Source: Eubacteriaceae bacterium
GTDB lineage: Bacteria > Bacillota > Clostridia > Oscillospirales > Acutalibacteraceae
DNA length: 64,000 nt
Direction of reading: 5' to 3'
Assembly (NCBI GenBank): GCA_021770095.1
Contig: JAETRQ010000004.1
Coordinates: 30,998 to 94,997 of the forward strand
The notes beneath the pieces were generated by a model. That model saw only the letters and a list, made by a program, of their open reading frames with translations, was not told where the DNA came from and made no database searches. The first letter of the stretch is position 1, and each line of letters begins with the position of its first letter. A program made the position numbers and the translations under genes. Shown here piece after piece: positions 2,682-38,145 of the stretch.

Positions 2682-2692
2682 AGGAAAATATT

Positions 2693-3151: not shown

Positions 3152-3176
3152 CAAAATAAAAAAATAGTGATATATT
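3148..3176 (+). promoter_or_regulatory. sigma-A type promoter of the trp operon leader
   Basis: TTGACA (3148-3153), 17-nt spacer ending in TGa, then TATATT (3171-3176). It sits about 20 nt upstream of the T-box leader. Confidence 0.55.
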
Positions 3177-3194
3177 ATTTAAAAATTGATAATC

Positions 3195-3470
3195 AAACCG
3201 ATGATGCGGAGATAAAAATAAGATACGCAATTACAGAGAGTTCCTGTTGCTGAAAATGGAGCATTAAACGGCTTATTAAATGGACCGCTGAGGGTGCAGT
3301 GAAAGGCAGTGCCGAGTATCCTGCAACGCTTTGACCGGCGTTATTGGGTCGGAGATATGATAGTATCTTGCTTAAAGTGTGTGGCAAAGCCATAAATCAA
3401 GGTGGCACCGCGGAATGTAGATTTCGTCCTTGGTAGTATATTCATACTACCAAGGACTTTTTATTTTTTC
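3195..3470 (+). promoter_or_regulatory. T-box riboswitch leader, tryptophan specifier (TGG)
   Basis: Stem I AGAGAG element (3235-3240). Specifier-loop context GAAA-TGG-A with TGG at 3257-3259. Conserved T-box sequence AAATCAAGGTGGCACCGCGG at 3394-3413, followed by a terminator hairpin. It lies directly upstream of trpE. Confidence 0.85.
3426..3469 (+). terminator. T-box attenuator terminator
   Basis: 14-bp perfect stem GTCCTTGGTAGTAT/ATACTACCAAGGAC with loop ATTC, followed by TTTTTATTTTTT. Confidence 0.85.
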
Positions 3471-3483
3471 AGGAGATGATGAA

Positions 3484-19412: not shown

Positions 19413-19534
19413 GTTGTACTTCAGTTTCAAGATTTCTTTTGCATCTGCAAAAGAATTTAGGATTATGTCAGGTCAATATGTTCGTCCTTCCCAGTGGAGC
19501 GATTTGAATATAGAAGTGATTATATGAATAAAAA

Positions 19535-19575
19535 CGGAATAGGTATACATTTTTATGTATGCCTATTTCGTTATA
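19535..19575 (+). terminator. hairpin terminator downstream of ppdK
   Basis: 16-bp stem CGGAATAGGTATACAT/ATGTATGCCTATTTCG (two G-U pairs) with loop TTTT. The T-tract after it is weak. Confidence 0.55.
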
Positions 19576-19762
19576 TCTTGAAATTGCTAACAAAAAAGCA
19601 CTGTTTACATAATATGACAATGTATGAAGTTAATGTTTTTGACTAATACTCATATTATTAATGTATTATTAATAGAAATAAAACAGTGCAAAGTGTTTAG
19701 TATTTGAGTACACTGAATGAGGTCTTAAAACACTTTGTGTTACCGTAATTCGTGGAGGATTT

Positions 19763-20272
19763 ATGACATTTTCAGAAAGAGTATGCATAGAAGATCTTGC
19801 TAGTGATGCAAGAAAAGCAGTTGAGAAAGAAGGTATTATATCTTCGGAACAATTAGATTTATCAATAGATAAGCTAAAAGAAATAGTCAAATTTTTCAAT
19901 GGTTCTCTATTAGAGGATAATAGTCAAGATTCAACTTATATCATAAGAAATAGAAATTCATTTACAATTTATTATTCCCAACAATCAACTTATTTAGATA
20001 TTTTACATGAGTTGGGTCACGCCTTTTTTGATATTCAGGAAAAAGCTGTTGGAGAAAAATTAGAATGTGATGGTATTGGAGAAATTCATGAACGTGCTTC
20101 ATTATTTGCAAGAGGCTTTTCTATGCCTAGAGATATATTTGAAACTGTAGTTATAAGACATTCAAGAAAAGGAAAGTTTAATGTTCTTGATATAGCAAAA
20201 GACTATAATACAAATTATTTTACTATAATGACTCGTGGCAAAGAGTTAAAAATTTTTGGAGATAAAAACTAA
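19763..20272 (+). CDS. ImmA/IrrE-family zinc metallopeptidase-like protein
   Basis: 169 aa. HELGH (HExxH) followed by EIHERASLFARGFSMPRDIF, which matches the E..A..FA..LLMP motif of the family. RBS GGAGGA. Confidence 0.8.
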   Translation: MTFSERVCIEDLASDARKAVEKEGIISSEQLDLSIDKLKEIVKFFNGSLLEDNSQDSTYIIRNRNSFTIYYSQQSTYLDILHELGHAFFDIQEKAVGEKLECDGIGEIHERASLFARGFSMPRDIFETVVIRHSRKGKFNVLDIAKDYNTNYFTIMTRGKELKIFGDKN

Positions 20273-20274
20273 AA

Positions 20275-21855
20275 ATGTCAGAAAATATTGATAAAAATTC
20301 TTTCCAAAAAATCAATGAATTGTTATCATCATCGAATTATAAAAAATTTTTTGATTCTAAAGATGATAAAAAAGATATTGATGGCAATAATGACAGAAAT
20401 GCAAACGATAATAGTGAGCAAAGTTCGGATTTAGACAAAAAAGTTAATCTTTATTTATTTGTTTCTTTTGACATTTGCAATTCAACGCAATTAAAGTCCA
20501 AAAGTGAAAATTGGTTTGAAATAATAAATAAATTATTAAATAAACCTTTTGATTGTAGCGATTTTTGGAAATTTAATGGCGATGAAGTTATATATAGGCG
20601 TGATGTTAGAAGTCTTGAGCATATTTGCGATGTAATTAAAGAAGCTTATAAACATTTAGATGAGCTAAACGAAGAATTTAATAGTATATACAACAATGTT
20701 TATGTGACATCAACAATTTGGATAGCTAGAACAAATGAGATTATAAAGCCTGATACTTATAATATCAAATTTTCAGTTAATGGATATAGTGAATATATTG
20801 GTAAAAATATAGATGAAGGTTTTCGCTTAACAAAAGAATCTTCAGCACAAAAAGTTGCCATTGATCCAAAAATTGTTTATTTAATATTAGAAGCTGAGCG
20901 TATCTTCAGTGATAGAACCTTTGATACTAATGTTGATTTTTTTAACAGTGTAAACGAAGTTAAAGAATCAGAAAGAAAAAAAGAAGTTCAAGACAAATTA
21001 GAAAGTATAAGGGACAGAATACATTTCATTGGTAGTACTAAGTGTAAAGGTATTTGGGATAATATGCCATATCCTATTTTTTGGTACTATGAAACTAAAA
21101 AAAGCAATCATAGAACTGAATATAATCAGTTCTTTAATGGATTTCATTTGTGGGATGAAATGAAAAAATTCAAATCTATAGATGACACATTCGTTAATAA
21201 GTTATACGAAGTTTTTAAAGTAGTCGGAATTATTCCTCAAGTTGAACAAATAACCGATTTGATTAGAATGAGTGCACCAGTTCCGAGTTCCTCTGAAACG
21301 AGAGCTAATTTGTATTATATGGTTGCTTGTGTTCACGAAAAGTCGGGAAAAGTTTTAATAGCAAAACGAAGTCAGTCTCGACAACATTTAAAAGGTGTAT
21401 GGGATTTTGGAAATGCCAAACATCAAAGTGTGAATATGGTAGCAACATTAAAGCAAGAATATAAAAATATATTTAATATTGATATTGATATTTTACAAGA
21501 TAAAGATCGAGAGTATAATCCTGTAATTCAAGGATATTGTACTATTTATAGAAATTGTTTACCTCATATAAGTTTACTTTTGGTTGCTAAAATAAATGGT
21601 ACAGACGAATTAACAGAAGAACAACTACTTGAGAGAATAAACAATAATTTAGCTGATGATTATGAAACAGTTAAATTTGTGAAACCCGAAGAAATAGAAT
21701 CTCTTTTTGTTCCTTTGAAAATGGAGGAAATACGACTAGATTCTAGGAATGATGAACTTGCTAATCATAATTTAGGTGAAAATAGGTGCATTATGTATTT
21801 TAAAGATTCTGTCATAAAGGCTTTGAAAGCATATAATTTATATGATGGTACATAA
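20275..21855 (+). CDS. 526-aa fusion protein with a class III nucleotidyl-cyclase-like N-terminal domain and a degenerate Nudix-like C-terminal domain
   Basis: The ATG is 2 nt after the upstream stop. Cyclase-like motifs: LFVSFDICNSTQL, KFNGDEVIY, GKNIDEGFRLTK. Nudix-fold pattern: VLIAKRSQSRQHLKGVWDFGNAK...ATLKQEYKNIFNIDI, with the catalytic Glu positions substituted. The CDS call is solid. The functional call is inference. Confidence 0.55.
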   Translation: MSENIDKNSFQKINELLSSSNYKKFFDSKDDKKDIDGNNDRNANDNSEQSSDLDKKVNLYLFVSFDICNSTQLKSKSENWFEIINKLLNKPFDCSDFWKFNGDEVIYRRDVRSLEHICDVIKEAYKHLDELNEEFNSIYNNVYVTSTIWIARTNEIIKPDTYNIKFSVNGYSEYIGKNIDEGFRLTKESSAQKVAIDPKIVYLILEAERIFSDRTFDTNVDFFNSVNEVKESERKKEVQDKLESIRDRIHFIGSTKCKGIWDNMPYPIFWYYETKKSNHRTEYNQFFNGFHLWDEMKKFKSIDDTFVNKLYEVFKVVGIIPQVEQITDLIRMSAPVPSSSETRANLYYMVACVHEKSGKVLIAKRSQSRQHLKGVWDFGNAKHQSVNMVATLKQEYKNIFNIDIDILQDKDREYNPVIQGYCTIYRNCLPHISLLLVAKINGTDELTEEQLLERINNNLADDYETVKFVKPEEIESLFVPLKMEEIRLDSRNDELANHNLGENRCIMYFKDSVIKALKAYNLYDGT

Positions 21856-21931
21856 AACTATTTTTAAATGATAGGCTACATTTTTAAATTTTTCTTTAGT
21901 TCTTCACAAAGTATTTTCATCCTAACCATTC

Positions 21932-21970
21932 GACCTTAGACAGTCTTATAACTTTCTAAGGTCTTATTTT
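21932..21970 (+). terminator. hairpin downstream of the cyclase-like gene
   Basis: Perfect 9-bp inverted repeat GACCTTAGA/TCTAAGGTC with a 14-nt loop, followed by TTATTTTA. Confidence 0.45.
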
Positions 21971-22137
21971 ATGCCCAAAATGGCTTAAATACAAGGAAAA
22001 TCGGTACTTTTGGCAAGCGCTTTAACTGATACAGACTAATACAAACCTCGCACAAAATTAAAGTTAAGGGGTAGATTTTAGGGGTACTGTTTAGGGTGAT
22101 ATTTTATACAATTTAATATATAAGACTTTTATACATA

Positions 22138-22174
22138 GCCACTTATTCTATTTTAGAATGAGTGGCATTTTTTT
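22138..22174 (+). terminator. strong rho-independent terminator-like hairpin immediately upstream of the ParB-like gene
   Basis: GCCACTTATTCTA/TAGAATGAGTGGC stem with loop TTT, followed by ATTTTTTT. A second small hairpin AGCCGTTA/TAACGGCT lies at 22179-22198. Confidence 0.6.
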
Positions 22175-22222
22175 ACACAGCCGTTACCAATAACGGCTAA
22201 ATCTGAACAAGGAGGTTAAAAG

Positions 22223-23128
22223 ATGAAAATAGAAAAGGAGGTAATAGATAGTGAAAGCAAACAAAAGAAAACATCAGAGTTAAAAAGTATTCCGTTGGAA
22301 CTGCTTGACGATTTCCCAAATCATCCGTTCAAAGTCAGAGATGATGAAGATATGCTTGAACTTATTGAGAGTGTAACAGAGCGTGGTGTGCTTGTTCCTG
22401 CAATGGTAAGACCCAAAGCTAATGGAAGATATGAACTCATATCAGGGCACCGAAGAAAAAGGGCAAGCGAATGTGTGGGTAAAGACACATTACAGTGCTT
22501 TGTTAAGGATTTGGATGATGCAGAAGCTGTTATCATTATGGTAGACAGCAATATCCAAAGGTCACATATTCCGCCGAGTGAAAAAGCCTTTGCGTATAAA
22601 ATGAAATTGGATGCAATGAATATGCAGGGAAAGCGGACTGATTTAACTTCTGTCCCACTGGGACAGAAGTTATCAAGACAAATTCTTTCTGAACAAACAG
22701 GAGAAAGCCAAACACAAATACAAAGGTATATTCGATTGACATTTCTTGTTCCCGAGCTGCTTGAACTTGTTGATGAGGGAAGAATGAAAATGCGCCCTGC
22801 TGTTGAACTTTCATATCTTGATGAAGATTGTCAGCGTGATTTGGTAGATGCAATAGATGAAGAAGATTGTACCCCTACTCACGCTCAGGCTATAAGGCTG
22901 CGAAAGGCTTTCAATGAAAACGCATTGACAAGAGATGCAATATTTATTGTTATGCAGGAAGAAAAACCGAATCAGAAAGACAGAATTATTCTGAAAGCAG
23001 ACACATTGAAAGATCTTATTCCGAATGGTGTATCGGAAAATAAAAGGCTCGAATATATCCGTAGGGCTTTGCAGTATTATGGTAAGTTTCTGCAAAGGCA
23101 AAGAATTAATGCAAAAGAAAGCAGATAA
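22223..23128 (+). CDS. ParB/Srx-like nuclease-domain protein
   Basis: FPNHPFKVRDDEDMLELIESV...GVLVPAMVRP...YELISGHRRKRA is a ParB N-terminal domain. This is typically the first gene of this ICE family. Confidence 0.85.
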   Translation: MKIEKEVIDSESKQKKTSELKSIPLELLDDFPNHPFKVRDDEDMLELIESVTERGVLVPAMVRPKANGRYELISGHRRKRASECVGKDTLQCFVKDLDDAEAVIIMVDSNIQRSHIPPSEKAFAYKMKLDAMNMQGKRTDLTSVPLGQKLSRQILSEQTGESQTQIQRYIRLTFLVPELLELVDEGRMKMRPAVELSYLDEDCQRDLVDAIDEEDCTPTHAQAIRLRKAFNENALTRDAIFIVMQEEKPNQKDRIILKADTLKDLIPNGVSENKRLEYIRRALQYYGKFLQRQRINAKESR

Positions 23129-23192
23129 AAAACAATCGCATTTTTGCAATAAATATATTATGATATATAATGTAGGCAAAGGAGAGATATGT

Positions 23193-23732
23193 ATGAAAAA
23201 ATCAGTTATATCTATTGCATTAATTTTGCTTTTACTGTTTGCCGGTTGCGGAAGAACTGAACAAGCAAAAGATGTAAGTTCAACATTACCCGTAGCAGAA
23301 AATACAACAGTATCAGAAAGCACAACCATATCAGAAGAAAAAACAACAAAATCCGAAACCACCACAAAGAAAAGTGATGATTCAGATACAACCGTAAGAC
23401 CCACTGAGCAAAAATCAGCAGGTCAGACCACACCTAAAAAAGTAACTACAACGCAAAAAAAAGCCACTACCGAAAAGCAGACAACTACCAAAAAAGTAAC
23501 CACCACTCAAAAACCTACAACCACTAAAAAGGTTACTACAACCGAAGAAGAATGGGATTGCAATGTAGACGGTCATTCCTGCAAAGAAGGTCCGATAGGT
23601 TGGTGCAACAGCTATGATGAAGCAGTAAATAAAGCAAAGAATTACATCGACCAAAATGCCGATTCAGGAGGATACCGAATTGAACATTGTTATTGGTGTG
23701 GTAAATATACTGCTGCAATCACTTTAGATTAA
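23193..23732 (+). CDS. lipoprotein with a Thr/Lys-rich tandem-repeat linker and a Cys-containing C-terminal domain
   Basis: Start at ATG 23193 (RBS AAAGGAGAG). Lipobox LLFAGC. Repeats KKVTTTQKKATTEKQTTTKKVTTTQKPTTTKKVTTT. Confidence 0.7.
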   Translation: MKKSVISIALILLLLFAGCGRTEQAKDVSSTLPVAENTTVSESTTISEEKTTKSETTTKKSDDSDTTVRPTEQKSAGQTTPKKVTTTQKKATTEKQTTTKKVTTTQKPTTTKKVTTTEEEWDCNVDGHSCKEGPIGWCNSYDEAVNKAKNYIDQNADSGGYRIEHCYWCGKYTAAITLD

Positions 23733-23815
23733 AAAAATAATATAGTACATTAAAGAGTCGAAAAATATTCGGCTCTTTTTTTGTACCCAAAATTCAAAAC
23801 GAAAGGAAGATTACT

Positions 23816-26800
23816 TTGAAAAATAAAATTAAAAAGTTATCTAAAAGAGCAGTTTCAATGCTCTTAACGCTGCTGATTATTTTATCAGCATTTCCGGCAA
23901 CAGTATTTGCTGCCGATTATATTACCGATATAAACAGCAACGCAAAGTTTGGTGTTATCAGCGGCTCGCTTGATAAATACGGACACGAAATGCACTATTC
24001 TACCTATGACGGTAAAACATATATTGTTTTTTGCGTTCAGTATGGAAAAACATCACCCGATGGAAGTACCTACGAATATGGTAAAGATTTTAAAAAATAT
24101 GTAAACCGTGAGGGTGATACCTACGAAAAAATTGCTGACTATATCGCATTCGGCTACACATTACAGCACGGTGACGGATTGCCGAACACTAAGCAGGAAT
24201 GGATAGACGCTTGCTGTACGCAACAGTTTGTATGGGAAACGCTTGGTGTAAATCCCACTCGTTCATCTTGGAACAGCACATATATGTCTGACAGTTTGTA
24301 TAAAAAGTGGAAAGATGACACCGAAGATTTAATTGATTTGTACTACAACAAACAGATTTCTTTTAACGGAGATACAAAGAAAATCAATCTCGGAGGCTCT
24401 GCTGCCCTTACAGATTCAAACGGTGTTTTGAAATACTATCCATCATTCAGTAAAACGGTTGATAAGGTAACTTTCTCTCATACAAAGGGAGAAAACAAAT
24501 TGAGTATTTCTGTTGCTGATAACTGCACAACACATTCGGTTAAATTCAAATCATCATCTTATGATATTTTTCAGGGACTGCCGACAGGTCAGCAGTATGA
24601 TGATAGCACAATGAATTATGTATATTTTGATTTTGAGAGCGGAAGTGTTCAAAATCTTATGTTTTCAAAATATGTTGATCCCCATTCGTTCAGCATTAAC
24701 ATAAATGTTGAATTTGGAAATTGTGAAATTCTGAAAACAAGTGAAGATGGCAAAGTCGATAATATCAAATTCAACTTTAATGGTAATGGCATTGACAAAG
24801 ATGTTGTGACTGACAGCAAGGGCAGAATATTTATTGGAAATATTCCCGTAGGTGTATATACAGTAACCGAATATCCGATTGATAAATATGTTGCTCCTAA
24901 ATCGCAGACAGTAACAATTAGCAATGGTCAGACTTCAACAGTTAATTTCAGCAATGTATTAAAGAAATTCAGAGTTACCGTTGTTAAATCAGATATTGAA
25001 AAAGGACACGCACAGGGTGATGCAAAACTCAGCGGTGCAAAGTACGGCATTTTTAAGGGCGAACAGTTAATTGACACCTACACCACAGACGATAACGCAT
25101 CTTTTACCACAAAGTATTATGTTTGCGGTAATGATTGGACAATCAGAGAAATTGCATCAAGTGAGGGATACCTTGTTAATGATGAAATTTACAAGGTCGG
25201 TGCAGACCCGAAACTTTATACCGTTGAACTTAATAATATTAATCTTGATGTAGTTGAAATGCCGATTAAAAACCGTATTTCACTTATTAAACATTCAGAT
25301 GACGGCAGTTCCAAGATTGAAACGCCTGAAAAAGACGCAGAGTTTGAGGTCTTTCTCAAATCATCGGGCGGTTATAATAATGCTGATGAAGATGAGAGAG
25401 ATGTTATTATAACGGACAAATACGGTTTTGGTTTTACCAAGTTGCTCCCTTACGGCACATATACTGTGCATCAGATAAAAGGAACGGAAGGCACAGAGTT
25501 TATTGCAGATTTTGATGTCTTTATTGACAGTGAGGAAAAGGAATATAAGTATCTTATCAATGACCCGTATTTCTATTCATTTCTCAAGGTAGTTAAAACT
25601 GATACCGAAACAGGAAAGCAGATTGCGTATACAGGGGCAGGCTTTGAACTTTATGCACCAAACGGTGAAAAGGTTGAAATGACCTACATCTATCCAACTC
25701 CTACTACGATTGACACATTCTATACAAACAGTGAAGGTTATCTTGTAACCCCTGAAAAATTAATCTACGGCGAGGGTTATAAGCTGGTTGAGGTACAGGC
25801 TCCGTATGGATATGTTCTTGATTCAACACCTATTGAATTTGATATAACACAGGAACACAGTACAAAAGAAAATGCACTGACTATTGTTAAGGTAGAAAGA
25901 CCTAATATTGCACAAAAAGGTGTGATTGAAATATCCAAAGAGGGTGACATATTTTCATCGGTTGGTATGCTCGGCGGCGGATATATTGATGAAAACGGCA
26001 ATGAGGTAACATTCCCAATCACTTATTCACCAATCTATGAAACAAGAAATCTTGCCAATGCAGTATTTCAGATTTATGCAGCCGAAGATATAATCACACT
26101 TGACGGAACAGTAAGAGCAGTTAAGGACGAGTTAGTAGACGAGATTACAACAACAGAAAATGGTGCAAAATCAAAAGAACTCTATCTCGGAAAATATACT
26201 GTGATTGAAAAGATTGCACCCGACACATTTGTTAATGCGAATGAACAGTACGATGTGGAATTAACCTACGCAGGACAGAATGTATCTGTAACATCAACAG
26301 CTCTTTCGGTATATAACGAAAGGCAGAAAGTATCTGTTTCACTTGCTAAGATTTTGGAAGAAAACGAAACATTCAAGCTCGGCAACAACGATGAAATCTT
26401 ATCCGTTCAGTTTGGTATTTTTGCCGATGAGGATATTACTGCTGCTGACGGCTCGATAATTCCGAAAGATGCGTTAATCACTTATGGTAACTGTGACGAG
26501 AACGGCAAACTCACATTTAACTGTGATTTACCAATCGGATATAAGTTCTACGCAAAAGAAATGGCAACCGATGAGCATTATATCCTCTCAAACGCCCATT
26601 ATGCCTTTGATACAGAATATCAGGGACAGGATATTGAAACCATCAATATTGACTTAAACGACGGCAAGTCTATTACCAATGAATTGATTTACGGCACAAT
26701 CAAAGGCTTGAAGATTGACCGTGAAACCGAAAAAGCAATCAAAGGTGCATTATTCGGATTATTCAATTCGAATGAAACTGAATATACAAAGGACAATGCC

Positions 26801-27493
26801 ATTCTCACTTGTGAAACAGACGAGAACGGCATTTTTGTTTTTGAGAATATTCCGTTTGGTAATTGGGTAGTTAAAGAATTACAGCCTGCTGAAAATTATC
26901 TGCCGACAGATGATATTCATCATATAACTGTAACGGATAACGAACAGATTATTGAAATCAAGGCAGTTAATGACCGTATCCCTGAACTGAAAACTACTGC
27001 AACAATCAATGGCGAAAAGGAAGTAACGGCAAAATGTGAAATCACCATTGAAGATGTTGTCGAATACAAGCATCTTGTTCCCGGTAAGGAATACAAGATT
27101 GTCGGCACGCTTATGGATAAAGCAACAGGCAAGCCGTTTGAGGTTGACGGAAAACCTGTTACAAGCGAGATAACCTTTACGCCCGAAAAATCAAGCGACA
27201 AGGTTAATGTTTCATTTACCTTTGATTCAAGTGTAATCAAAGAAGATACGGCGCTTGTTGTCTTTGAAACGCTTTACAGAGATAATGTAGAAATTGCAGT
27301 ACACGCAGATTTGAAAGATGATGGTCAGACAGTAAAAATTAATGTGCCTGTTCCGAAAAATCCAATAATTCCTAAAACCGGTGATGACAGCAATATTGCT
27401 TTATGGACTTCACTTGCAGGCTTTTCGGCACTTGGTATTATTGCATTAACCGCATCACTTATTCGCAAAAGAAAGAATAACAAGGAGGACTGA
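23816..27493 (+). CDS. sortase-anchored surface adhesin with Cna-B/SpaA-type and VaFE repeats
   Basis: 1225 aa with a signal peptide. Repeated G.Y.V.E..AP.GY-type modules, the VVFETLY (VaFE) motif, and a C-terminal IPKTGD sorting signal followed by a TM helix and RKRKNNK tail. A possible N-terminal thioester pair is FCVQ...CTQQFVW. Confidence 0.85.
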   Translation: MKNKIKKLSKRAVSMLLTLLIILSAFPATVFAADYITDINSNAKFGVISGSLDKYGHEMHYSTYDGKTYIVFCVQYGKTSPDGSTYEYGKDFKKYVNREGDTYEKIADYIAFGYTLQHGDGLPNTKQEWIDACCTQQFVWETLGVNPTRSSWNSTYMSDSLYKKWKDDTEDLIDLYYNKQISFNGDTKKINLGGSAALTDSNGVLKYYPSFSKTVDKVTFSHTKGENKLSISVADNCTTHSVKFKSSSYDIFQGLPTGQQYDDSTMNYVYFDFESGSVQNLMFSKYVDPHSFSININVEFGNCEILKTSEDGKVDNIKFNFNGNGIDKDVVTDSKGRIFIGNIPVGVYTVTEYPIDKYVAPKSQTVTISNGQTSTVNFSNVLKKFRVTVVKSDIEKGHAQGDAKLSGAKYGIFKGEQLIDTYTTDDNASFTTKYYVCGNDWTIREIASSEGYLVNDEIYKVGADPKLYTVELNNINLDVVEMPIKNRISLIKHSDDGSSKIETPEKDAEFEVFLKSSGGYNNADEDERDVIITDKYGFGFTKLLPYGTYTVHQIKGTEGTEFIADFDVFIDSEEKEYKYLINDPYFYSFLKVVKTDTETGKQIAYTGAGFELYAPNGEKVEMTYIYPTPTTIDTFYTNSEGYLVTPEKLIYGEGYKLVEVQAPYGYVLDSTPIEFDITQEHSTKENALTIVKVERPNIAQKGVIEISKEGDIFSSVGMLGGGYIDENGNEVTFPITYSPIYETRNLANAVFQIYAAEDIITLDGTVRAVKDELVDEITTTENGAKSKELYLGKYTVIEKIAPDTFVNANEQYDVELTYAGQNVSVTSTALSVYNERQKVSVSLAKILEENETFKLGNNDEILSVQFGIFADEDITAADGSIIPKDALITYGNCDENGKLTFNCDLPIGYKFYAKEMATDEHYILSNAHYAFDTEYQGQDIETINIDLNDGKSITNELIYGTIKGLKIDRETEKAIKGALFGLFNSNETEYTKDNAILTCETDENGIFVFENIPFGNWVVKELQPAENYLPTDDIHHITVTDNEQIIEIKAVNDRIPELKTTATINGEKEVTAKCEITIEDVVEYKHLVPGKEYKIVGTLMDKATGKPFEVDGKPVTSEITFTPEKSSDKVNVSFTFDSSVIKEDTALVVFETLYRDNVEIAVHADLKDDGQTVKINVPVPKNPIIPKTGDDSNIALWTSLAGFSALGIIALTASLIRKRKNNKED

Positions 27494-27496
27494 TTT

Positions 27497-27592
27497 ATGA
27501 CAGCAAAAACGATTATTGCAATCTGCTTGGTTGCATTTATTGTAGGCTGCTTTGTTTTCCTGCAGATTAAAAATCGCAAGAAAGACAATTAA
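27497..27592 (+). CDS. small single-TM protein (31 aa)
   Basis: The ATG is 4 nt after the adhesin stop and uses the AAGGAGGA within the adhesin 3' end as its RBS. Sequence MTAKTIIAICLVAFIVGCFVFLQIKNRKKDN. It is below the ORF-track size cutoff. Confidence 0.35.
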   Translation: MTAKTIIAICLVAFIVGCFVFLQIKNRKKDN

Positions 27593-27652
27593 AACTCAAA
27601 ACATCATGGGCAGTATTTAACTGCCCTTTTATTTTATCCAAAGGAGAAATCT

Positions 27653-28006
27653 ATGCTTTATTTTGATAAAAACATCGCAGTCAGATACGGTGTCAGAAGT
27701 GCTGTAATAATGCAGTATGTATGGGAAAACATTTTGAACAATGAGGAAGATGTAATGGAAATGAATGGTGATATATGGTATCGCAGTTCAGCCGTTATAA
27801 CATCAAGCATACTGCCTTTTTATTCAAAAGACCAGATACAGCGTTCTTTCAATTATCTCGTGAAATGCGGTGTATTAAAGAAAAAGAAACTTTCAAAATC
27901 AAAGTTTGATCATACAAATTGGTATGCGTTTACTGAGTATGGAAACGAAATTATGTTAAAAAGTGAGGAGGAAGAAAACGCAAGGAATGAAGAAAAAGAA
28001 ATATGA
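27653..28006 (+). CDS. hypothetical protein (possible winged-helix)
   Basis: 117 aa with RBS AAAGGAGA. No confident motif. Confidence 0.5.
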   Translation: MLYFDKNIAVRYGVRSAVIMQYVWENILNNEEDVMEMNGDIWYRSSAVITSSILPFYSKDQIQRSFNYLVKCGVLKKKKLSKSKFDHTNWYAFTEYGNEIMLKSEEEENARNEEKEI

Positions 28007-28145
28007 TTGCTCAAAGTGTAATTACCGTGACAGAACAATCAATTTCTGCGGATTTTGTACGAAACGATTACTTGACGAAATGAAGGAGGCTAAAGCGAAA
28101 AATGGGAAACAAAGCAACATTTCAGACCAAATCAAGAGTTCTTAA
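27987..28145 (+). CDS. small Cys-rich (zinc-ribbon-like) protein
   Basis: MKKKKYDCSKCNYRDRTINFCGFC contains CxxC...CxxC. The start is inferred. Confidence 0.35.
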   Translation: MKKKKYDCSKCNYRDRTINFCGFCTKRLLDEMKEAKAKNGKQSNISDQIKSS

Positions 28146-28329
28146 CAAACTGTTTGAAAACGGCTACACCACTGAAAAAGATTTACAGTCCTTAACACTT
28201 GAAAATGCACTTGCAATTAATTCAATTACCATTCCCGAACTTACTGTAATTATGGAGTTACAGAAATATGCAAAGGCAGGCAAACTCTTTTCTTATCTGG
28301 GAGGTGATATAGATAATACAGCAAACTGA
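28102..28329 (+). CDS. hypothetical protein
   Basis: 75-aa ORF co-oriented within the ICE. Confidence 0.4.
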   Translation: MGNKATFQTKSRVLNKLFENGYTTEKDLQSLTLENALAINSITIPELTVIMELQKYAKAGKLFSYLGGDIDNTAN

Positions 28330-28339
28330 TACCATTACA

Positions 28340-29305
28340 ATGCGCGTAATGAAAGAAAATGAAATGCGTTACTGTTTGATTCAGAATCAGCAGATAAATA
28401 TGATTACCGGGCGCATAGGATATATGCACAGCGATTTCAACAGTGACGGCGAGAGTTTAAATTCAACTTGGTTTGATGAAGTTGAAAGCCGTAATTCATT
28501 TAAATTTCAGGAAACATTAAACAGCGTGATTGATGTTTTGCAGAATGATCCTCAGTATAGAGGAGTAATCAGAAATGCAGAAGATATGAAACTCTTATGT
28601 TCAACAAGACCGAACAGCAGATTACCAGTAAATCTGCATAGCAATAGTTACGGTTTCAGAGTTGATACAGATAATTATGCTTTTCTTTTATGCTGTAATG
28701 TAAATCCTGAACATTACAGCTTTTCAATTACTGCATATTTGAGAGAAACATTTGACAGTCATATTAAAAATGCAGAAAAAGGCATCAGATTTATCAACAG
28801 TAATTACAAGACACTATTCACAATTCCTGACGGAGATACAATTCAGATTACACTTGATAACGGTGAACAATATACCCGAATTTGCAGATATGTTGATGAT
28901 TATCATTTTCAGACTATAAACGGTTTTGAAGAAAAGTATGTCAATCTGTTTCATATCTGCCAATTTGCCGAGCTTATGGAGAAAAACGGAAACACTGTTG
29001 TTCCCCTTCGCTCATCACTTCCCGATGACTGTTTTGTGTATCTTGAAAGCACGAATGAAATTGCGTTAATCCAAAAAGGTGCTCTGGGATATTTTCAAAC
29101 CGATTATGCCGTAGCAGATGCAGATGAAAATAAGAATAATGTTATTCTTCTGAATAAATCAAGGAAAATCACACCTGCTCAGTATGAAGCCATGAAAGCA
29201 GGCTCAATGTTCGGCTGGGCAGTTCCTGCCGCTGATCCTAAAAATTATGATGATAAAGGAATACCCCTTAAATCTAAAATCAGAGAACTCGGTGACTCAA
29301 GATGA
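28340..29305 (+). CDS. hypothetical ICE protein
   Basis: 321-aa ORF, coupled to the next gene by an ATGA overlap. Confidence 0.6.
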   Translation: MRVMKENEMRYCLIQNQQINMITGRIGYMHSDFNSDGESLNSTWFDEVESRNSFKFQETLNSVIDVLQNDPQYRGVIRNAEDMKLLCSTRPNSRLPVNLHSNSYGFRVDTDNYAFLLCCNVNPEHYSFSITAYLRETFDSHIKNAEKGIRFINSNYKTLFTIPDGDTIQITLDNGEQYTRICRYVDDYHFQTINGFEEKYVNLFHICQFAELMEKNGNTVVPLRSSLPDDCFVYLESTNEIALIQKGALGYFQTDYAVADADENKNNVILLNKSRKITPAQYEAMKAGSMFGWAVPAADPKNYDDKGIPLKSKIRELGDSR

Positions 29306-29847
29306 ATGAAAAAAGACAAATTCTTTGGAGTGATTTGCACATTGATTTTGACGATTGGAAAGATGATTTACAATCTGAATATCCAAATTACAGCGAGAAT
29401 GAATTGATTGATTTGATGTATGATACCAATTCAGATTATCTTAATGATTTACGGGATAATCTGAATATGCAGCTTTCACAGCCAATTATTATTATCGGTG
29501 ATATAGGCAGATGGAACGGCAGAGTAAGCGGATATAAAATAATTCATTCAGGTAATCTGAAAGATTGTTTTTATACCGAATGTGATTATGCAGAATGGTA
29601 TGTTGATAAACTCGGTGATTTGAGATGTGAAGCAGCACATCATGACGGCAATAATTATTATCTTTATCGTGTATTCAAAGATAATGTAACGGAAGAACAG
29701 ATAGAAAACTTGAAATCAAAACTATACTACGGAAAAGCAACAAGGGCAGATATTACACGAGTAACGAAAAGACTTGGTGATGATATTGCAAAGGTATATA
29801 ACATCACTATTCCGAGACAAAGAATTAACGCAATTGCAGAAAGGTAA
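29302..29847 (+). CDS. hypothetical ICE protein (acidic N-terminus)
   Basis: 181-aa ORF that overlaps the upstream stop. Confidence 0.6.
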   Translation: MNEKRQILWSDLHIDFDDWKDDLQSEYPNYSENELIDLMYDTNSDYLNDLRDNLNMQLSQPIIIIGDIGRWNGRVSGYKIIHSGNLKDCFYTECDYAEWYVDKLGDLRCEAAHHDGNNYYLYRVFKDNVTEEQIENLKSKLYYGKATRADITRVTKRLGDDIAKVYNITIPRQRINAIAER

Positions 29848-29853
29848 GATTGT

Positions 29854-30108
29854 ATGAAAGTAAGAATGACAATAGAATTTGAGATGAATCATTCTGTTTC
29901 TGATGAGCCTGAAACAAAGATGAGCAAACAGGAATTAATCAGTGGACTTATCATCAGAAACAGTGATGAAATAGACGGATTTGAACTGACAACTAATTTT
30001 TGTGGTTATGATAACAGCAGTGATTTTTTTATTGTTCCTGATTCACATAAAATAATATCTGCAAAGTGTATAGATAAATCAATCAAAAATATGGATTATG
30101 AAAGGTAA
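29854..30108 (+). CDS. hypothetical protein
   Basis: 84-aa ORF, tightly packed with its neighbours. Confidence 0.5.
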   Translation: MKVRMTIEFEMNHSVSDEPETKMSKQELISGLIIRNSDEIDGFELTTNFCGYDNSSDFFIVPDSHKIISAKCIDKSIKNMDYER

Positions 30109-30113
30109 AATAA

Positions 30114-33100
30114 ATGCCATCAAAATTTGAATTAATTACCGATATATATAAGCAAATCAGTAATGAGGTTGTTCGTTCGCCATATAACTGGCAGAACTTT
30201 TTATCATCCGTATGTCATAATTACCGCCTGCGTTTTGATGAACAGTTGCTTGTATATGCACAAAGACCTGATGCAACCGCTGTTTTGGAAACTGTAAAAT
30301 GGAATAATAAATTTTACAGATGGGTAAATCGTGGAGCAAAAGGCATTGCCGTATTTTCCGAAAGCCGTAATCTGAAATATTATTTTGATATTTCCGATAC
30401 GCACGAAACAAAAAGAGCAAAGCCGGTTCCTGTGTGGCAGTATAATGAAGAATACGAATCTGAAGTAATTGAAACACTTGAAAATTCCTTTGGTGAGCTT
30501 GAAAATAAAGATACTCTATACAATGCCGTTATGTCTGCTGCCGATAATGTTGTTGAAGATAATATATCGGATTATCAGTCTGATTTGTTAATGCTCACAA
30601 AAGACAGTTTTCTTGAAGAACTTGATAACGATATTGTTTCATCACTGTATAAGAATACTGTTAAAAACAGTGTTGCATTTATGCTGCTTTCAAGACTTGG
30701 TATTGATACAGATGAATATTTCAGCAGAGAAGATTTCAAAGATATTGTGAATTTCAATACACCTGATACGCTTAATTCAATCGGCTATGCCACAAGTGAT
30801 ATATCGGAAACCGTGCTTTATGAGATTTCAAAAACAATAAAAGCTCTTGAAAAGGAAAATCGCATAATTGCAGAAAACGCCCACTCTGATTATACTAAAG
30901 CCGTAAATAAAAATATTGAAAGGAGTGCAGATTATGACAGAACTCACTTACAGAACGGAAAACGGCTATCAGATACCCAATATCGTTATGCTAAGTCAGA
31001 AAAATTTGACCTTGAGCTTATATGGGCAGACGAGGAGGAAATTCCTCAAGGAAAATCACAGAGTGATGTACTACAGCCTGATGACATCAGGCAAACTGAA
31101 CAGTCATCTGTCGGAAATCGACCGGAGAGCGAAAGCAATGGAAGAAAAGTTGATGATACAGATGTCCGAGCAGGAAGGTCTGACGGAACAGATGAAAGCC
31201 GACAATCAGATAGCTTGGGTACAGGCAATGAACAATCTGAAAAACCGAGTACAGGAAATCGTGATGACAGAAGTGATTTACAGTCTGTAACAGATGAAAT
31301 ACCGCCGCTGACTGATGATAACCTTGTTCTTGGTATTATCAAGAATACAGATGATGACTTAACTGTATCAAAATCGGATATTTTAGAATATTTCAAATAT
31401 CATTCTGATGTAAATGACAGAACAAATTTCATAATGCAGGCTTACCCTGATGAATATAGGGAATTTGATGTTGACAATATCCGTGTCGGATATAAGCCTG
31501 AAAAAGACGGACTCCTCTTGTGGAAAGGTGCATACCTTTCAAGAACAGAGGAGTCCTTCTTTACTTGGAATATTGTTTCTGAAATCACTGAACAGCTTAT
31601 TGACAGCGGTGAATATGTAACCGAAGATAAGAAAAATAATGAGCCTTTACAGTTTAGTATTTTTGATTTCAGTGACAGCTTACCACAGCAGGAAATTGCA
31701 GAAATCAAAGTTGATGAAAAAACACCGCTTGAAATCAGAAGTGATTTATACAGAGAATATCTGAAAAAGAAAGCAGAATATCCCGATGATATTCTGCTCT
31801 ATCAACACGGAGATTTCTATAATGTTTATGGTGACGATGCAACGAAAACACACGATATTGTTACATTCATAATGACTGATGTCACTATGGATAATGGAGA
31901 AACAATACCGATTTACAGTATTCCGAAAACACAGTCTAAAGTATATATTGACAGACTTGTTGATAACGGCTTTTCCGTTGCAATATCAGACGAAGAAAAC
32001 GGAATAAGGCACGATACAGTTCATTCAAATGAAAATATTGAGAAGCCTTCCACCTCACCTATTTGGGATGAATACAGAGATATTAAACGGATATATAAAG
32101 ACGATATTATTCTGTATCAGGTCGGTGATTTCTTTGAAGTAATGGGTGATGATGCAAAGACCGTTGCAGATAAATTTGACCTTGTATTGACAGGCAGAGA
32201 TGTCGGATATTCCGACAGAATTGCAATGTGCGGTTTCCCTGTCAGAAGCAAAGAAAAATATATCAAAGGGCTTAATGAACTCGGATACGCTGTTGTGGTA
32301 TCTTCACTTGATAATGGTGTAAGGCGAGAAGATTCCTATTTGCCTGATAAGAAACCGACAGACAAAATGCCTGTCGGTGTTATTGATTATCTTGCCAATG
32401 ACGGAACAATCGGATACAGCAGAGAGTTCTATGATGAAAAAGAATTTGTTGAAGAGATTAACGATAACAGTTATTCAGGTGTTCCGACTTCGGTAAAAGT
32501 ATATAACAATCCTGATACGGATGAACACATTTCAACATCATTTTTGAATGACCTCGATCCGCCGATGAATCATTTTGAAATTGCTGAATATGAGCAGCCT
32601 GCGAAAGATGAAACCGAAACCACAGAGCCTGAACAATCAGAGGATAAGGATAAACCTTTAACTGCACCTCAGACACAGCCTAAAGCAAGGGTGCAGACCT
32701 TTGATTTGCACCCTGAAATTCCGCTGTCCGAAAGACACAATTATAACTTTCGTGATAAGGAAATTGAAACTGTCGGCAAAAAAGAGCGTTTCCGCAGGAA
32801 TATGGCAGCTATCAAGGTGCTGAAAGATTGTGAATTTGAAAACCGCTTTGCCACTCCTGAAGAACAGGAAATCCTATCGGGATATGTTGGTTGGGGCGGT
32901 ATACCCGAAGCCTTTGATGAAAACAATGAAGCGTGGGCAGATGAATTTATTGAACTTTATGAAACATTAAGTCCTGATGAATACAAGACAGCAATGGACA
33001 GTGTATTGACTGCCTTTTATACACCTCAGTCCGTTATTTCTGCAATATACAAAGTGCTTGATAATCTCGGCTTTAAACAAGGCAACATCCTTGAGCCTTC

Positions 33101-36100
33101 CTGTGCTATCGGTAACTTTATCGGTATGCTGCCTGACAGTATGAAAGACAGTAAAATGTACGGTGTTGAGATTGACAGCATATCGGCAGGCATTGCACAG
33201 CAGCTTTATCAGACTTCATCCATTATGACATCACCTTTTGAAAATGCAGAAATGCCCGACAGCTTTTTTGATGCAGTAGTCGGCAATGTGCCTTTTGGAG
33301 ATTTAAGGATAACAGACAAAAGGTATGATAAAAACAAATTCCTTATACACGATTACTTCTTTGCGAAATCACTTGATAAGTTAAGACCGGGCGGAATTAT
33401 GTGCCTTGTAACAAGCAAGGGTACAATGGATAAGGAAAACGCCGCAGTCAGAAAATATATTGCTCAAAGAGCCGACTTGCTCGGTGCTGTCAGACTGCCC
33501 GATAACACCTTTAAAGGCAATGCAGGCACAGAGGTAACATCCGATATTCTGATACTGCAAAAGCGTGACAGAATGGTTGACATTGAGCCTGATTGGGTAC
33601 AGCTTGATACTGATGAGAACGGTATCAGAATGAACAAATATTTTGCCACACATCCTGATATGGTGCTCGGTGAAATGGTTATGGAGTCTGGCAGATTCGG
33701 TGAAGATAGTACCTGTAAAGCAAGTGAAACGGAAAGTCTTGAAACTCTGCTTGATAAGGCAGTATCAAATATCAAAGGCGAAATCACCGATTACTATATT
33801 GATGATGCAATCGGTGAGGAGGAAGAAGAATATATCCCTGCCGATCCTGATGTGCGCAACTTTTCCTTTACAGTGGTTGACGATAAAGTATATTACCGTG
33901 AAAATTCACTGATGAGAGCAGTCAACACGAATATGACTGCCGAAAACCGAATTAAAGGTATGGTCGCAATCCGTGATTGTCTGCGTAATCTGATTGAAAT
34001 GCAGACGAAAGATTTTTCGGATTTTGAAATACAGAAAGAACAGGAAAAACTCAATTCTCTTTATGATAATTTCACTAAGAAATACGGTCTGATAAACAGC
34101 AGAGGTAACACATCGGTATTTTGCGATGACAGTTCGTATTATCTGTTATGTTCCCTTGAAATCATCAAGGAAGGTAAACTTGAACGCAAAGCGGATATAT
34201 TTACAAAAAGAACAATTCAGCCGCATATTGCCAAAACGCATGCTGATACTTCAACCGAAGCTCTCGGTATTTGTATCGGTGAAAAAGCAAAGGTTGATAT
34301 GGACTTTATGTGTCAGCTCACAGGCAGAACCGAAGAGCAGATATATGAAGATTTAAAGGGTGTAATTTTTCTCAATCCGATGTATAAATACGGCAGCGGA
34401 AACAAGGATAAGTATCTCACTGCCGATGAATATTTATCAGGCAATGTCCGTGAAAAACTTGATTTTGCAAAGCGTTCTGCAAAACTCTATCCTGACGATT
34501 ATACCGTCAATGTGGAAGCTCTTGAAAAGGTACAGCCCGTTGACTTAACGGCTGCCGAAATCGGCGTACAGCTTGGCGCAAACTGGATACCGATTAAGTA
34601 TATTGAACAGTTTATGTTTGAACTGCTTGAAACACCTGTCAGAAGTCAGTGGAATATTAAAGTAAACTATTTGGAATACACAGGCGAATGGAATGTTGAG
34701 GGTAAATCAAGTGACAGAGGAAATCTGAATGCCACAAGCACCTACGGAACAGACAGAATGAACGCCTACCGAATCATTGAAACTACACTCAATATGCGTG
34801 ATGTTCGTGTGTTTGATTATGTTGAAGATGTTGAGGGTAAGCGAAAAGCAGTTCTCAATCAGCGAGAAACAGCAGCTGCACAGCAAAAACAAAAAATCAT
34901 TAAACAGAAGTTCAAAGAATGGATATGGTCTGATCCCGAACGCAGAGATGAACTCTGCAAATTGTATAATGAAAAGTTTAATTCAATCAGACCGAGAGAA
35001 TACGACGGAAAGCATATTGTTTTCGGCGGAATGAATCCCGAAATAACGCTTACCACACATCAGCGAAATGCGGCAGCAAGGGCAATATACGGCGGTAACA
35101 CTCTTCTTGCTCACTGCGTAGGTGCAGGAAAAACCTTTGAAATGACTGCAATAGCACAGGAATCAAAGCGGCTTGGATTATGCAACAAGTCGCTTTTTGT
35201 TGTGCCGAATCACCTCATATCTCAATGGGCAAGCGAATATCTTACGCTTTATCCTACGGCAAATATACTCGTTGCCACGAAAAAGGATTTTGAGAAAAGA
35301 AACAGAAAAAAGTTCTGTGCAAAGATTGCTACAGGTGATTATGATGCGGTTATCATCGGTCATTCTCAGTTTGAAAAAATACCTGTCAGTATTCAAAGAC
35401 AGATTGCCTGTCTTGAAAATCAGATTAAAGAAATCACGACAGGAATTGCAGTATTAAAAGCGGATAAGGGCGAAAATTTCACTGTTAAACAGCTTGTTGC
35501 AACAAGAAAAAAACTTGAGGAAAAACTGAAAAGGCTGAATGACCAAAGCCGAAAAGATGATGTTGTAACCTTTGAAGAACTCGGTGTTGACAGACTGTTT
35601 GTTGACGAAAGTCATTATTACAAAAACCTTTTCACATACTCTAAAATGCGGAATGTAGGCGGCATTTCACAGGTTGATGCACAGAAATCAAGTGACCTTT
35701 TTATGAAGTGCCAATATCTTGATGAGCTTACGGGAAGTAAGGGTGTTATCTTTGCCACAGGAACGCCGATCAGTAATTCTATGGTTGAACTCTTTACGGT
35801 TCAGCGTTATCTGCAATATGAATTATTGCGAAAGCAAAACCTGTTGTTTTTTGATGCGTGGGCAGCAAATTACGGTGAAACGGTAAACTCTATTGAACTT
35901 AAACCCGAAGGCACAGGCTACAGGGCTAAGACACGATTTGCAAAGTTTAATAATCTGCCTGAACTTATGGCAATGTTCAAGGAATGTGCAGATATACAAA
36001 CCGCCGATATGCTCAAACTTCCTGTTCCGAAAGCAAACTATCATAACATTTCCGTAAAGCCGTCAGAGATTCAGACGGAAATGGTTGAGAACCTTGCAGA

Positions 36101-37572: not shown

Positions 37573-38145
37573 TTAATGCACAAAAATTCTCCATATAACA
37601 AGACATAACGCACTTATTCCGCCGATAGAAAAGATTGCACACTCTATTAATACTGCAATATTAAACAAAGCAAATTTTCTGTATGCTACGTTTGATAAAT
37701 CAATAATTTGACTTGACAGTTGATAGTCTACTGATTTTTTATCTGCATTACTATTATTGTTGAACACATTAGTATAAATATCTTTTAAATATTCACGTGG
37801 ATCTGAATAGTTTGTACTTATATATGAATAAAACATATATTTATTTTGTTTTTTTTCAATTATATGTTTGCTTTTATAATAATTAACTATCTTATTTGTT
37901 ATCCCTTTATCAGAACCTGTGGCTGCTATAAATGAAGAAATAGATAATGACAATGGTATTATTAATGATAAAGTTACTAATGCGATTAAAACTCTCCATA
38001 AAAAAGCAATATTTGCATCAAATACTTTGCTTGAGCAAGCACTAATCAATGCACTATTAAGTGTTACTAACGCGGCATTTTTGGCTTCTGAAAATTTAAT
38101 ATTGTCATTAATTTCAGAATAAGTTTTGGTTAAAAATTCGTTCAT
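37573..38145 (-). CDS. 190-aa three-TM protein resembling Pycsar-TM/SLATT-type membrane effectors
   Basis: Antisense to the ICE backbone and AT-rich. The N-terminus INDNIKFSEAKNAALVTLNSALI is followed by 2 TM helices, a ~70-aa soluble segment and a C-terminal TM helix. The family resemblance is from memory only. Confidence 0.5.
   Translation of the reverse strand: MNEFLTKTYSEINDNIKFSEAKNAALVTLNSALISACSSKVFDANIAFLWRVLIALVTLSLIIPLSLSISSFIAATGSDKGITNKIVNYYKSKHIIEKKQNKYMFYSYISTNYSDPREYLKDIYTNVFNNNSNADKKSVDYQLSSQIIDLSNVAYRKFALFNIAVLIECAIFSIGGISALCLVIWRIFVH

Follow-up and report, generated by a model that had tools for sequence, protein, structure and literature searches.

A Pycsar operon encodes a cyclase that produces a cyclic pyrimidine mononucleotide (cCMP or cUMP) together with an effector, PycTM or PycTIR. 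Pycsar defence couples a class III-fold nucleotide cyclase genetically to a membrane effector of the PycTM family (PF18967, the pJV1-spdB3 3TM family), and PycTM effectors are gated by cyclic nucleotide monophosphates (cNMPs) both in Pycsar and in the related Pucsar branch, the product of which is cGMP. A survey of 2026 that compared immune cNMP cyclases described five subclades and reported no peptidase and no Nudix domain for any of them, nor was either reported for a sixth, clade F, described in the same year. The AGS-C domain, which is predicted to be immunoglobulin-like (Ig-like), is found C-terminal to CD-NTases and to Pycsar-2 cyclases, the latter branch having a bihelical domain at the N-terminus and using transmembrane (TM) effectors only. 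On the peptidase side, CapP combines an M78 peptidase domain with described zinc ligands, a helix-turn-helix (HTH)-like linker and a GAF domain, and the paradigm for its action is the cleavage of the repressor CapH, the two genes being divergently arranged; this pair of HTH protein and peptidase has been reported upstream of some Pycsar/cyclase operons, and ImmA/ImmR controls the induction of integrative and conjugative elements (ICEs) and prophages. Here, we analysed a 64-kb stretch of DNA from a Eubacteriaceae bacterium (contig JAETRQ010000004.1), called the window in its full length, in which a pair of genes between ppdK and a conjugative element encodes an M78 peptidase and a cyclase-Nudix-like fusion protein. 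We consider it likely that the two genes provide the sensing and signal-making part of a cNMP abortive-infection system of the Pycsar type with a previously undescribed architecture, the effector of which may, in the window, be a PycTM encoded in trans.

Both genes lie on the forward (+) strand. Gene 1 (19763-20272, 169 amino acids (aa), taken from the list of open reading frames (ORFs)) encodes a bare M78 zinc metallopeptidase domain of the CapP/IrrE/ImmA type, and gene 2 (20275-21855, 526 aa) a cyclase-Nudix-like fusion recognized from its ORF, an AlphaFold2 model, Foldseek and its homologues. The TAA of gene 1 (20270-20272) is separated by a 2-nt gap from the ATG of gene 2 at 20275, which has a GGAG 13 nt to its 5' side. 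An earlier reading made from the letters alone (the sequence-only reading) had described two translationally coupled genes in an AT-rich block, and the ORF list and the GC profile reproduced its coordinates exactly: the GC content was 0.25-0.31 over 19500-22000, with 0.42-0.46 in ppdK and 0.35-0.39 in the element on the right. A chance origin of both ORFs is excluded by their length in 27%-GC DNA, and the identical 526-aa protein was present on 17 contigs examined, from independent samples. Judged by their sequences, both genes are real members of a large family.

The pair is preceded by an operon leader (19689-19762, +) with an inverted repeat (CAAAGTGTTT at 19689-19698 and AAACACTTTG at 19728-19737) and the ribosome-binding site of gene 1, GGAGG (19754-19758, +). 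We found that this leader (75 nt, with the inverted repeat and the ribosome-binding site) was nearly base-for-base identical in L051 (L-numbers denote the loci of relatives), and that divergence started at the coding sequence. No significant hairpin was obtained when the leader RNA was folded (z=-1.06), and a search of Rfam for a riboswitch or known RNA in the leader gave nothing above noise. The inverted repeat could be an operator or a piece of a recombination boundary. On the other side, a terminator-like hairpin (22138-22166; 22138-22176 with its T-run, +), identified in a terminator scan, closes the two-gene transcript, and from 21855 to ParB at 22223 nothing is encoded and no effector remnant was seen.

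Gene 2 was modelled with AlphaFold2 from a family alignment of 66 sequences (mean predicted local distance difference test score of 88.1), and the model was compared with known structures. Foldseek matched it to CyaB (3R5G, 6.7e-8), CyaC (1WC1) and the Pycsar cUMP synthase (7R65, 1.1e-5) in the PDB, with TM-scores of 0.5-0.72 normalised to the target over alignments of about 230-240 columns. Among the 50 PDB matches listed, those to the cyclase domain were all class III adenylate, guanylate or uridylate cyclases, with no GGDEF protein and no Cas10, and a viral structure library returned one guanylate cyclase and more than 30 Nudix hydrolases, in agreement with the class III fold that had been read from the motifs. 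The class III-fold nucleotide cyclase domain, defined by Foldseek and the invariant columns, occupies residues ~55-290 (20437-21144, +), limits that are inferred from the AlphaFold2 secondary structure and the aligned lengths in Foldseek. In the alignment the invariant columns are F62, D66, W98, K99, G102, D103, G176, D180, E181, G182, F183 and R184, which form the conserved pattern FxSFD66IxxST, WKxxGD103E and G176-x3-D180-E-G-F-R184; in the window protein D66 stands in FVSFDICNST, D103 in WKFNGDE, and D180 and R184 in GKNIDEGFR. The order and spacing of FxDIxxST and GDE are as in class III metal sites, and D66/D103 correspond to the class III metal aspartates and R184, by motif spacing, to the catalytic arginine. 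All three motifs named in the sequence-only reading are therefore present on invariant columns, but its placing of the Asn in GKNIDEGFRL (N178) calls for a correction: when the N-x3-R relation was examined by motif spacing rather than by residue-level superposition, R184 was invariant, the position four residues before it was the equally invariant D180, and N178 was not invariant. The canonical class III Asn thus appears to be replaced by D180.

The remainder of gene 2 was also assigned. What had been described as an unassigned middle region of ~130 aa is largely the C-terminal portion of the cyclase followed by a helical linker, as indicated by the Foldseek span and the secondary structure. 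The N-terminus is modelled as helices at 7-18 and 20-26 and is an unconserved extension of 2 to 54 residues across the family. The majority fraction was 0.51 in the cyclase core and 0.50 in the Nudix-like domain, compared with 0.31 in the linker and 0.19 in the N-terminal tail. Single-sequence searches with gene 2 gave Pfam NUDIX_4 at E=0.035, under the curated cut-off, and nothing meaningful in NCBIfam.

Residues ~341-505 (21295-21789, +) are predicted by profile and Foldseek to form a Nudix-fold pseudo-enzyme domain. The C-terminal family profile matched MutT structures in the PDB (3HHJ 7.5e-5, 5X1X 9e-5, 3EES 1.4e-4), and Foldseek placed MutT 3GRN against the gene 2 model at 1.1e-5 besides the viral Nudix proteins. 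The Nudix box is defined as GX5EX7REUXEEXGU and carries the catalytic glutamates. In the window it reads G-NAKHQ-S-VNMVATL-KQEYKNIFN, with REUxEE replaced by KQEYKN, and the family consensus at this site is xxxYKNxFG (keYknefg aligned opposite REUxEE), without any conserved Glu; the Nudix fold with a degenerate box was thus correctly foreseen. Given that the fold lacks the box glutamates, hydrolysis is very unlikely. Residues R365, W376 and D409 are conserved, and R369, H371, K382, R426, H431 and N432 are nearly invariant, suggesting that the domain retains a conserved basic/aromatic pocket. Since the domain is conserved as much as the cyclase core, a conserved small-molecule ligand is favoured over a fast-evolving protein-recognition surface.

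Non-catalytic domains of this kind have precedents. Inactive Nudix ligand sensors exist, for example NrtR, an ADP-ribose-sensing Nudix-related regulator; both NrtR and the gene 2 domain have a Nudix fold with a ligand pocket and a degenerate box, but the latter is fused to a cyclase and NrtR to a DNA-binding domain. The AGS-C fusions likewise place a non-catalytic domain at the C-terminus of a signalling enzyme, whereas the gene 2 domain has the Nudix alpha/beta fold and AGS-C an Ig-like one; an AGS-C identity of the C-terminal domain was considered and rejected, as Pfam AGS_C (PF18134) matched 0 of the 66 sequences and the folds differ. The PADLOC candidate PDC-S07, a 135-position Nudix-like profile, did match the C-terminal domain (window 1.7e-4, Helicobacter 1.9e-12, Halobacillus 8.8e-12), but PDC-S07 is a single-gene Nudix-like candidate without cyclase, peptidase or effector.

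Gene 1 carries HELGH at residues 82-86 (20006-20020), and H82, E83 and H86 were invariant in an alignment of 21 sequences. The third zinc-ligand column holds Glu in most family members, Asp in one and His109 in the window protein. As a single sequence, gene 1 matched Peptidase_M78 of Pfam weakly (E=0.014, under the curated cut-off), RmrA (1.2e-6) and capP (3.4e-4) in PADLOC, and, again weakly, the spr1629 family (HTH-M78, 1e-3) in NCBIfam. The profile of the 21 sequences gave much clearer matches in the PDB, to CapP (7T5T, 3.6e-10), an HTH-M78 protein (3.6e-7) and IrrE (2e-5), with the CapP match confined to the peptidase domain (residues 76-175 of 291). Neither an HTH-like linker of the CapP/IrrE type nor a C-terminal GAF domain was found in the 169 aa. 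No HTH-like ORF occurs in either spacer flanking the pair in the window, so that the view of gene 1 as an ImmA/IrrE-type protein without an HTH partner was upheld. A hidden HTH partner was also considered and rejected: the small ORFs in the spacers are of low complexity and unconserved as HTH. No recurrent HTH gene stood beside the pair in the Pfam-annotated neighbourhoods inspected, the other loci being unscreened for HTH. Compared with CapH-CapP, IrrE-DdrO and ImmA-ImmR, gene 1 shares the M78 HExxH fold and the downstream ligand, and CapP is likewise tied to nucleotide-signalling immune operons; unlike them, it has no HTH substrate gene, no linker and no GAF domain (169 versus 291 aa), and it is co-directional with and translationally coupled to the cyclase gene, whereas capH-capP is divergent. 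Taken together, these results indicate that gene 1 is a minimal M78 zinc peptidase, as far as can be predicted from homology.

We further studied how widespread the pair is and which genes accompany it. At least 100 homologues of gene 2 were found, down to 26% identity, and an exhaustive profile search of 1.84 billion representatives yielded 1,891 proteins at E<=1e-3, 1,384 at E<=1e-10 and 420 at E<=1e-30, so the family comprises at least 1,384 members when counted as representative clusters (50% identity) at E<=1e-10. Only one of the eight family proteins looked up had an NCBI protein accession, and it was annotated 'hypothetical'. Among the loci of 22 species-level genomes and the metagenomic loci, only two did not have the M78 gene directly 5' of the cyclase gene. 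This order was seen in about 30 distinct loci, and co-conservation of the two genes across phyla was thereby confirmed. The hosts include Clostridia, Sarcina, Halobacillus, Floricoccus, Helicobacter, Leptospira, Fibrobacter, Spirochaetes, Aminicenantes and Planctomycetes. On a plasmid of Leptospira interrogans, for instance, an NCBI-annotated 'ImmA/IrrE family metallo-endopeptidase' gene lies 4 nt upstream of one for a cyclase-only 'hypothetical protein'.

The effector became apparent in these neighbourhoods. Homologues with 31-46% identity are encoded in operons in the order M78 (164-187 aa), ~520-560-aa protein and PF18967 PycTM (176-220 aa), often with overlapping stops and starts, and the adjoining TM proteins of the relatives matched the PADLOC PycTM models at 1e-11 to 1e-29. 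Among full-length systems, that is, those with both the cyclase and the Nudix-like domain, 16 were evaluable (three more end at contig edges), and PycTM was directly adjacent in 12 of them, downstream in L001, L010, L012-L019 and L050 and upstream in L028; it was 1.5 kb away in L048 and 15-17 kb away in the window and L051/L044. Since short, cyclase-only forms keep M78 and have no PycTM nearby, the invariant core consists of peptidase and cyclase, and the Nudix-like domain and PycTM are frequent additions. The sequence-only reading had taken the pair for a stand-alone module with no canonical effector, and this part has to be given up, given the adjacent PycTM of these relatives and the cognate-subfamily PycTM that the window encodes at a distance of 15.7 kb. 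Its other statement, that the locus matches no named system, stood in PADLOC, Pfam, NCBIfam and the searchable literature: in a full-text search the combination of M78 with a cyclase-Nudix protein was not found described, the comparison with the 2026 survey covering the survey apart from its accession table. As PycTM occurs beside most full-length relatives and in the window, the locus probably represents a Pycsar-type system of new architecture and not a new kind of system.

Complete modules were also found in phages. A family member is encoded in nine records of temperate C. difficile phages (phiCD27, phiC2, phiCDHM19, CDKM9 and phiCD508), and the full module of M78, cyclase-Nudix protein and PycTM was present in all three phage records inspected (phiCD27, phiCDHM19). 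Family hidden Markov models matched the phage proteins at 1.5e-40 (M78), 6e-61 (large protein, both domains) and 4.5e-24 (PycTM). In phiCD27 (L070, NC_011398.1, record 28800-31465) the products are gp38, a 'metallo-protease', gp37 of 528 aa, and gp36 on the converging strand; in phiCDHM19 (L071) gp42-44 are annotated as 'metallo-protease', 'putative Nudix hydrolase protein' and 'DUF5706 domain-containing protein', DUF5706 being, we presume, the former name of PF18967. Beyond 'putative Nudix hydrolase', the large protein of these phages carries no annotation other than 'hypothetical'. The module sits between the endolysin/holin (lysis) genes and the lysogeny region, with the integrase visible in phiCD27. 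The junction of lysis and lysogeny regions is the usual place of prophage accessory or defence genes.

In the window, tblastn with the PycTMs of the relatives gave only noise over 21501-22400, and a remnant next to gene 2 was thereby rejected. The same queries identified a gene at 37573-38145 on the reverse (-) strand, inside the conjugative element and 15.7 kb from the pair (1.7e-19). It encodes a PycTM-family membrane effector of 190 aa with three hydrophobic segments, which also matched the PADLOC models 2TM effector (8.5e-22) and PycTM (1.3e-14) and carries a precomputed PF18967 assignment. Its neighbours are a gene for a 2469-aa MutS_I/Eco57I-methylase/SNF2-helicase protein and a DUF3848 gene, and it appears to be variable cargo of the element family. 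Homologues with 42-51% identity to this PycTM are operon-adjacent effectors of M78 and cyclase-Nudix operons; L050 shows the cognate PycTM directly (M78 of 216-221 aa, large protein of 561 aa, PycTM), and five further cases are indicated. This suggests that the PycTM of the window belongs to the subfamily used by the cyclase family of gene 2.

The closest homologues of the window PycTM (76-80% identity) are encoded at the equivalent place in members of this element family, and both evaluable cases had an M78-cyclase pair on the same contig, where ppdK and ParB meet (L051-55 with L044-47; L048/49). In L048/49, the 14.4 kb matching window 22846-37209 are deleted and the conjugation genes are gone, but what is left includes the pair and, 1.5 kb from it, an intact PycTM. 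The layout ppdK-pair-ParB...PycTM is thus kept in three lineages. Where the element is inserted at other chromosomal sites (ParB 97% identical), the pair is missing from the region upstream of ParB, and the pair-less copy on a 593.9-kb contig also appears to be without PycTM. In blastn, homology to L051 and to L056 (an element copy elsewhere) begins at window 22114-22118, which places the pair just outside the shared backbone and the hairpin at 22138-22176 just inside the left end of the element. This end (~22114) was placed by homology, as neither attachment-site repeats nor an integrase were found at the element boundaries.

Comparison of the three ppdK-adjacent lineages revealed an uneven pattern of divergence. 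Between the window and L051, ppdK was 95% identical at the aa level, ParB 85% and PycTM 79.5%, compared with 42.5% for M78 and 45.5% for the cyclase protein; between the window and L048, PycTM was 77% identical, M78 33% and the cyclase protein 36%. Across the lineages the pair was therefore 33-46% identical and its flanks 77-95%, and the catalytic motifs were intact in all three despite the 36-46% identity of the cyclase. A hypervariable sensor and generator beside a conserved effector would be predicted for an immune module that is driven to diversify or is exchanged as a cassette.

Set against Pycsar, the family shares the genetic coupling of a class III-fold cyclase to a PycTM, the mobile and defence contexts, and the fast-evolving cyclase beside a conserved effector. 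It differs in that its cyclase escapes the PycC models of PADLOC and the cyclase models of Pfam, that the C-terminus holds a dead Nudix domain where Pycsar has nothing or AGS-C, that an M78 peptidase is encoded upstream as an obligate partner, and that the effector of the window stands outside the operon. On this comparison of predicted proteins and gene order, the locus is probably a Pycsar-type cNMP defence module. Upon infection, the cyclase, dimerized head to tail as in the rest of class III, would make a 3',5'-cNMP, the base of which cannot be assumed because the related Pucsar branch makes cGMP. The dead Nudix domain would act as an allosteric nucleotide-binding sensor or regulator, analogous to AGS-C in role and not in fold. 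The M78 peptidase would exert post-translational control over the cyclase protein or its complex, either switching it on or keeping it safely off; the missing HTH partner, the missing GAF domain and the strictly coupled position argue for an action on the cyclase and not for transcriptional de-repression. The cNMP would then open PycTM, leading to membrane damage and aborted infection as in Pycsar and Pucsar. With no adjacent effector in the window, the likeliest receiver would be the PycTM at 37573-38145 in the conjugative element, and we give about an even chance that the pair works with it in trans as a split system. That the peptidase directly cleaves the cyclase protein is a tentative suggestion. 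Equally tentative is the combined scheme in which M78 is a direct proteolytic switch that cleaves or holds the second-messenger synthase, the dead Nudix domain reads an infection-derived nucleotide, and the system is split.

Several observations weigh against a Pycsar-type system that is split in the window. The window itself has no adjacent effector, the deletion variants L006/L007 keep the identical pair without the PycTM region, and the three lineages with the split layout may reflect perhaps one ancestral event. One Helicobacter metagenome-assembled genome has no PycTM within 5 kb of a full-length pair, nor was one found within 5 kb in eight short cyclase-only relatives (273-351 aa), which keep the M78 partner. 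The PADLOC PycC models gave no match for the window protein or five relatives, Pfam Guanylate_cyc matched 0 of the 66 family members, PycC was absent from the PDB sequence matches, and generic cyclases ranked above PycC in Foldseek. Moreover, an invariant Asp (D180) stands where class III enzymes have Asn, so that the chemistry or the product could differ. As a separate observation, the pair in L006 runs into a truncated VirB4-like gene and L007 carries a ParB-SpaA fusion; the two may be real deletion variants or assembly artefacts.

The best surviving alternative is that the pair is an effector-less remnant, a decaying or orphaned Pycsar-like couple, and that the PycTM of the element has nothing to do with it and is cargo that might, for instance, benefit the element, in the way that the pJV1 SpdB3 relatives of the PycTM family serve the spread of plasmids. 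The lack of an adjacent effector or effector remnant in the window and the retention of the pair without the PycTM region in L006 and L007 fit this explanation, as does the position of PycTM, which lies well within the element, is flanked by genes of the element and is encoded on the opposite strand. A preprint on Pucsar puts the PycTM family in the pJV1-spdB3 3TM family, and another paper treats SpdB3 in the intramycelial spreading of Streptomyces plasmids. However, both ORFs are intact with all invariant residues kept, and the pair and PycTM are retained jointly in three diverged lineages, including a decayed element without conjugation genes. Furthermore, the PycTM is of the subfamily specific to the cyclase family, and the element copy without the pair appears to be without PycTM, so that we regard a remnant as unlikely.

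It is less probable still that the pair is a self-contained, toxin-antitoxin-like module, in which the cyclase would be the toxic output through cNMP overproduction or nucleoside triphosphate drain, M78 the antidote or gate, and PycTM optional. The M78-cyclase pairing is indeed the universal core, and the eight short forms and the Leptospira plasmid forms are without a nearby PycTM. The weak likeness of gene 1 to the M78 part of HTH-M78 antitoxin/repressor families (spr1629 at 1e-3; RmrA) points the same way. Against a toxic cyclase, PycTM is in the operon of most full-length members, and so strongly conserved a Nudix-like domain speaks for signalling that is regulated. The role of class III cyclases is in signalling, and none is known to us to work as an effector that depletes nucleotides.

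Transcriptional control after the model of CapP or ImmA, in which gene 1 would cleave an HTH repressor encoded elsewhere upon DNA damage and its linkage to the cyclase would be regulatory only, is very improbable. CapP is the best structural-family match of gene 1 and CapH cleavage the paradigm, the pair abuts a conjugative element and ImmA/ImmR governs ICE/prophage induction, and the conserved inverted repeat of the leader could be an operator; but no HTH ORF is adjacent in the window and none recurs in the inspected Pfam-annotated neighbourhoods, gene 1 has neither HTH-like linker nor GAF domain, it runs in the direction of the cyclase gene 2 nt away whereas capH/capP are divergent, and the pairing persists outside ICEs, including in phages and plasmids. 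We attach just as little probability to the palm domain being another nucleotidyltransferase, akin to GGDEF proteins or minimal polymerases, with a dinucleotide or linear product, because the invariant D180 in place of the class III Asn, the sequence-based resemblance of WKFNGDE to the GGDEF signature and the missing Pfam Guanylate_cyc match are opposed by cyclase-domain matches that are all class III among those listed by Foldseek, by FxDIxxST and GDE in the order and spacing of class III metal sites, and by PycTM effectors being known partners of cNMP cyclases.

If the preferred reading of the pair as half of a Pycsar-type system is true, a large branch would be added to cyclic-mononucleotide immunity. 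Given that no Pfam, NCBIfam or PADLOC PycC model detects the family, censuses undercount Pycsar-type systems, especially in gut Clostridia. The proposed proteolytic switch would amount to a new activation logic for cyclic-nucleotide immunity in a family of ~1,400 clusters missed by current tools, and the pairing of an HTH-less CapP-type peptidase with a cyclase even where there is no effector points to protease control of the signalling enzyme and not of transcription. A pseudo-Nudix domain as sensor would be new for such systems. If the system is split, a fast-evolving sensor beside the chromosomal ppdK would be combined with a conserved effector riding in a conjugative element, a natural experiment in which defence components are shared between chromosome and mobile element. 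The complete modules of the cultured temperate phages phiCD27 (gp36-38) and phiCDHM19 (gp42-44) offer tractable cases, with the large protein also present in phiC2, and these C. difficile phage modules bear on prophage-mediated superinfection immunity and phage therapy.

Other genes were noted around the pair and its relatives. The flanks of L001/L003 hold triple serine recombinases, Fic and an OLD-type AAA/TOPRIM protein, that of L012 ArdA and a barnase/barstar-like pair, and that of L050 a retron-like reverse transcriptase and an SMC/AAA protein. In L024 (Halobacillus litoralis, 2583-4311), the pair is followed 3' by a second canonical M78 peptidase (Pfam 4e-12) and then a tyrosine integrase, which suggests that it lies at the edge of a prophage or integrative element. 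Directly 3' of the ppdK stop in the window, a micro-ORF at 19414-19527 (+) reads (M)YFSFKISFASAKEFRIMSGQYVRPSQWSDLNIEVII* and may encode an unannotated small protein; it had zero matches in NCBIfam. Its counterpart in L048, LSFNFLIDYETAKKYRQESGRYIRPTQWNDIHVQVII*, shows conservative substitutions within an unconserved spacer, and the L051 version has no internal ATG, leaving the TTG at 19414 as the candidate start. Within the conjugative element, a Bro-N protein (40379-41239, +) matched the PADLOC candidate PDC-S13 over its full length (E=1.5e-137), and just past the right end of the conjugation genes two large RHS-repeat proteins of 487 and 1431 aa are encoded at 57334-63089 (-).

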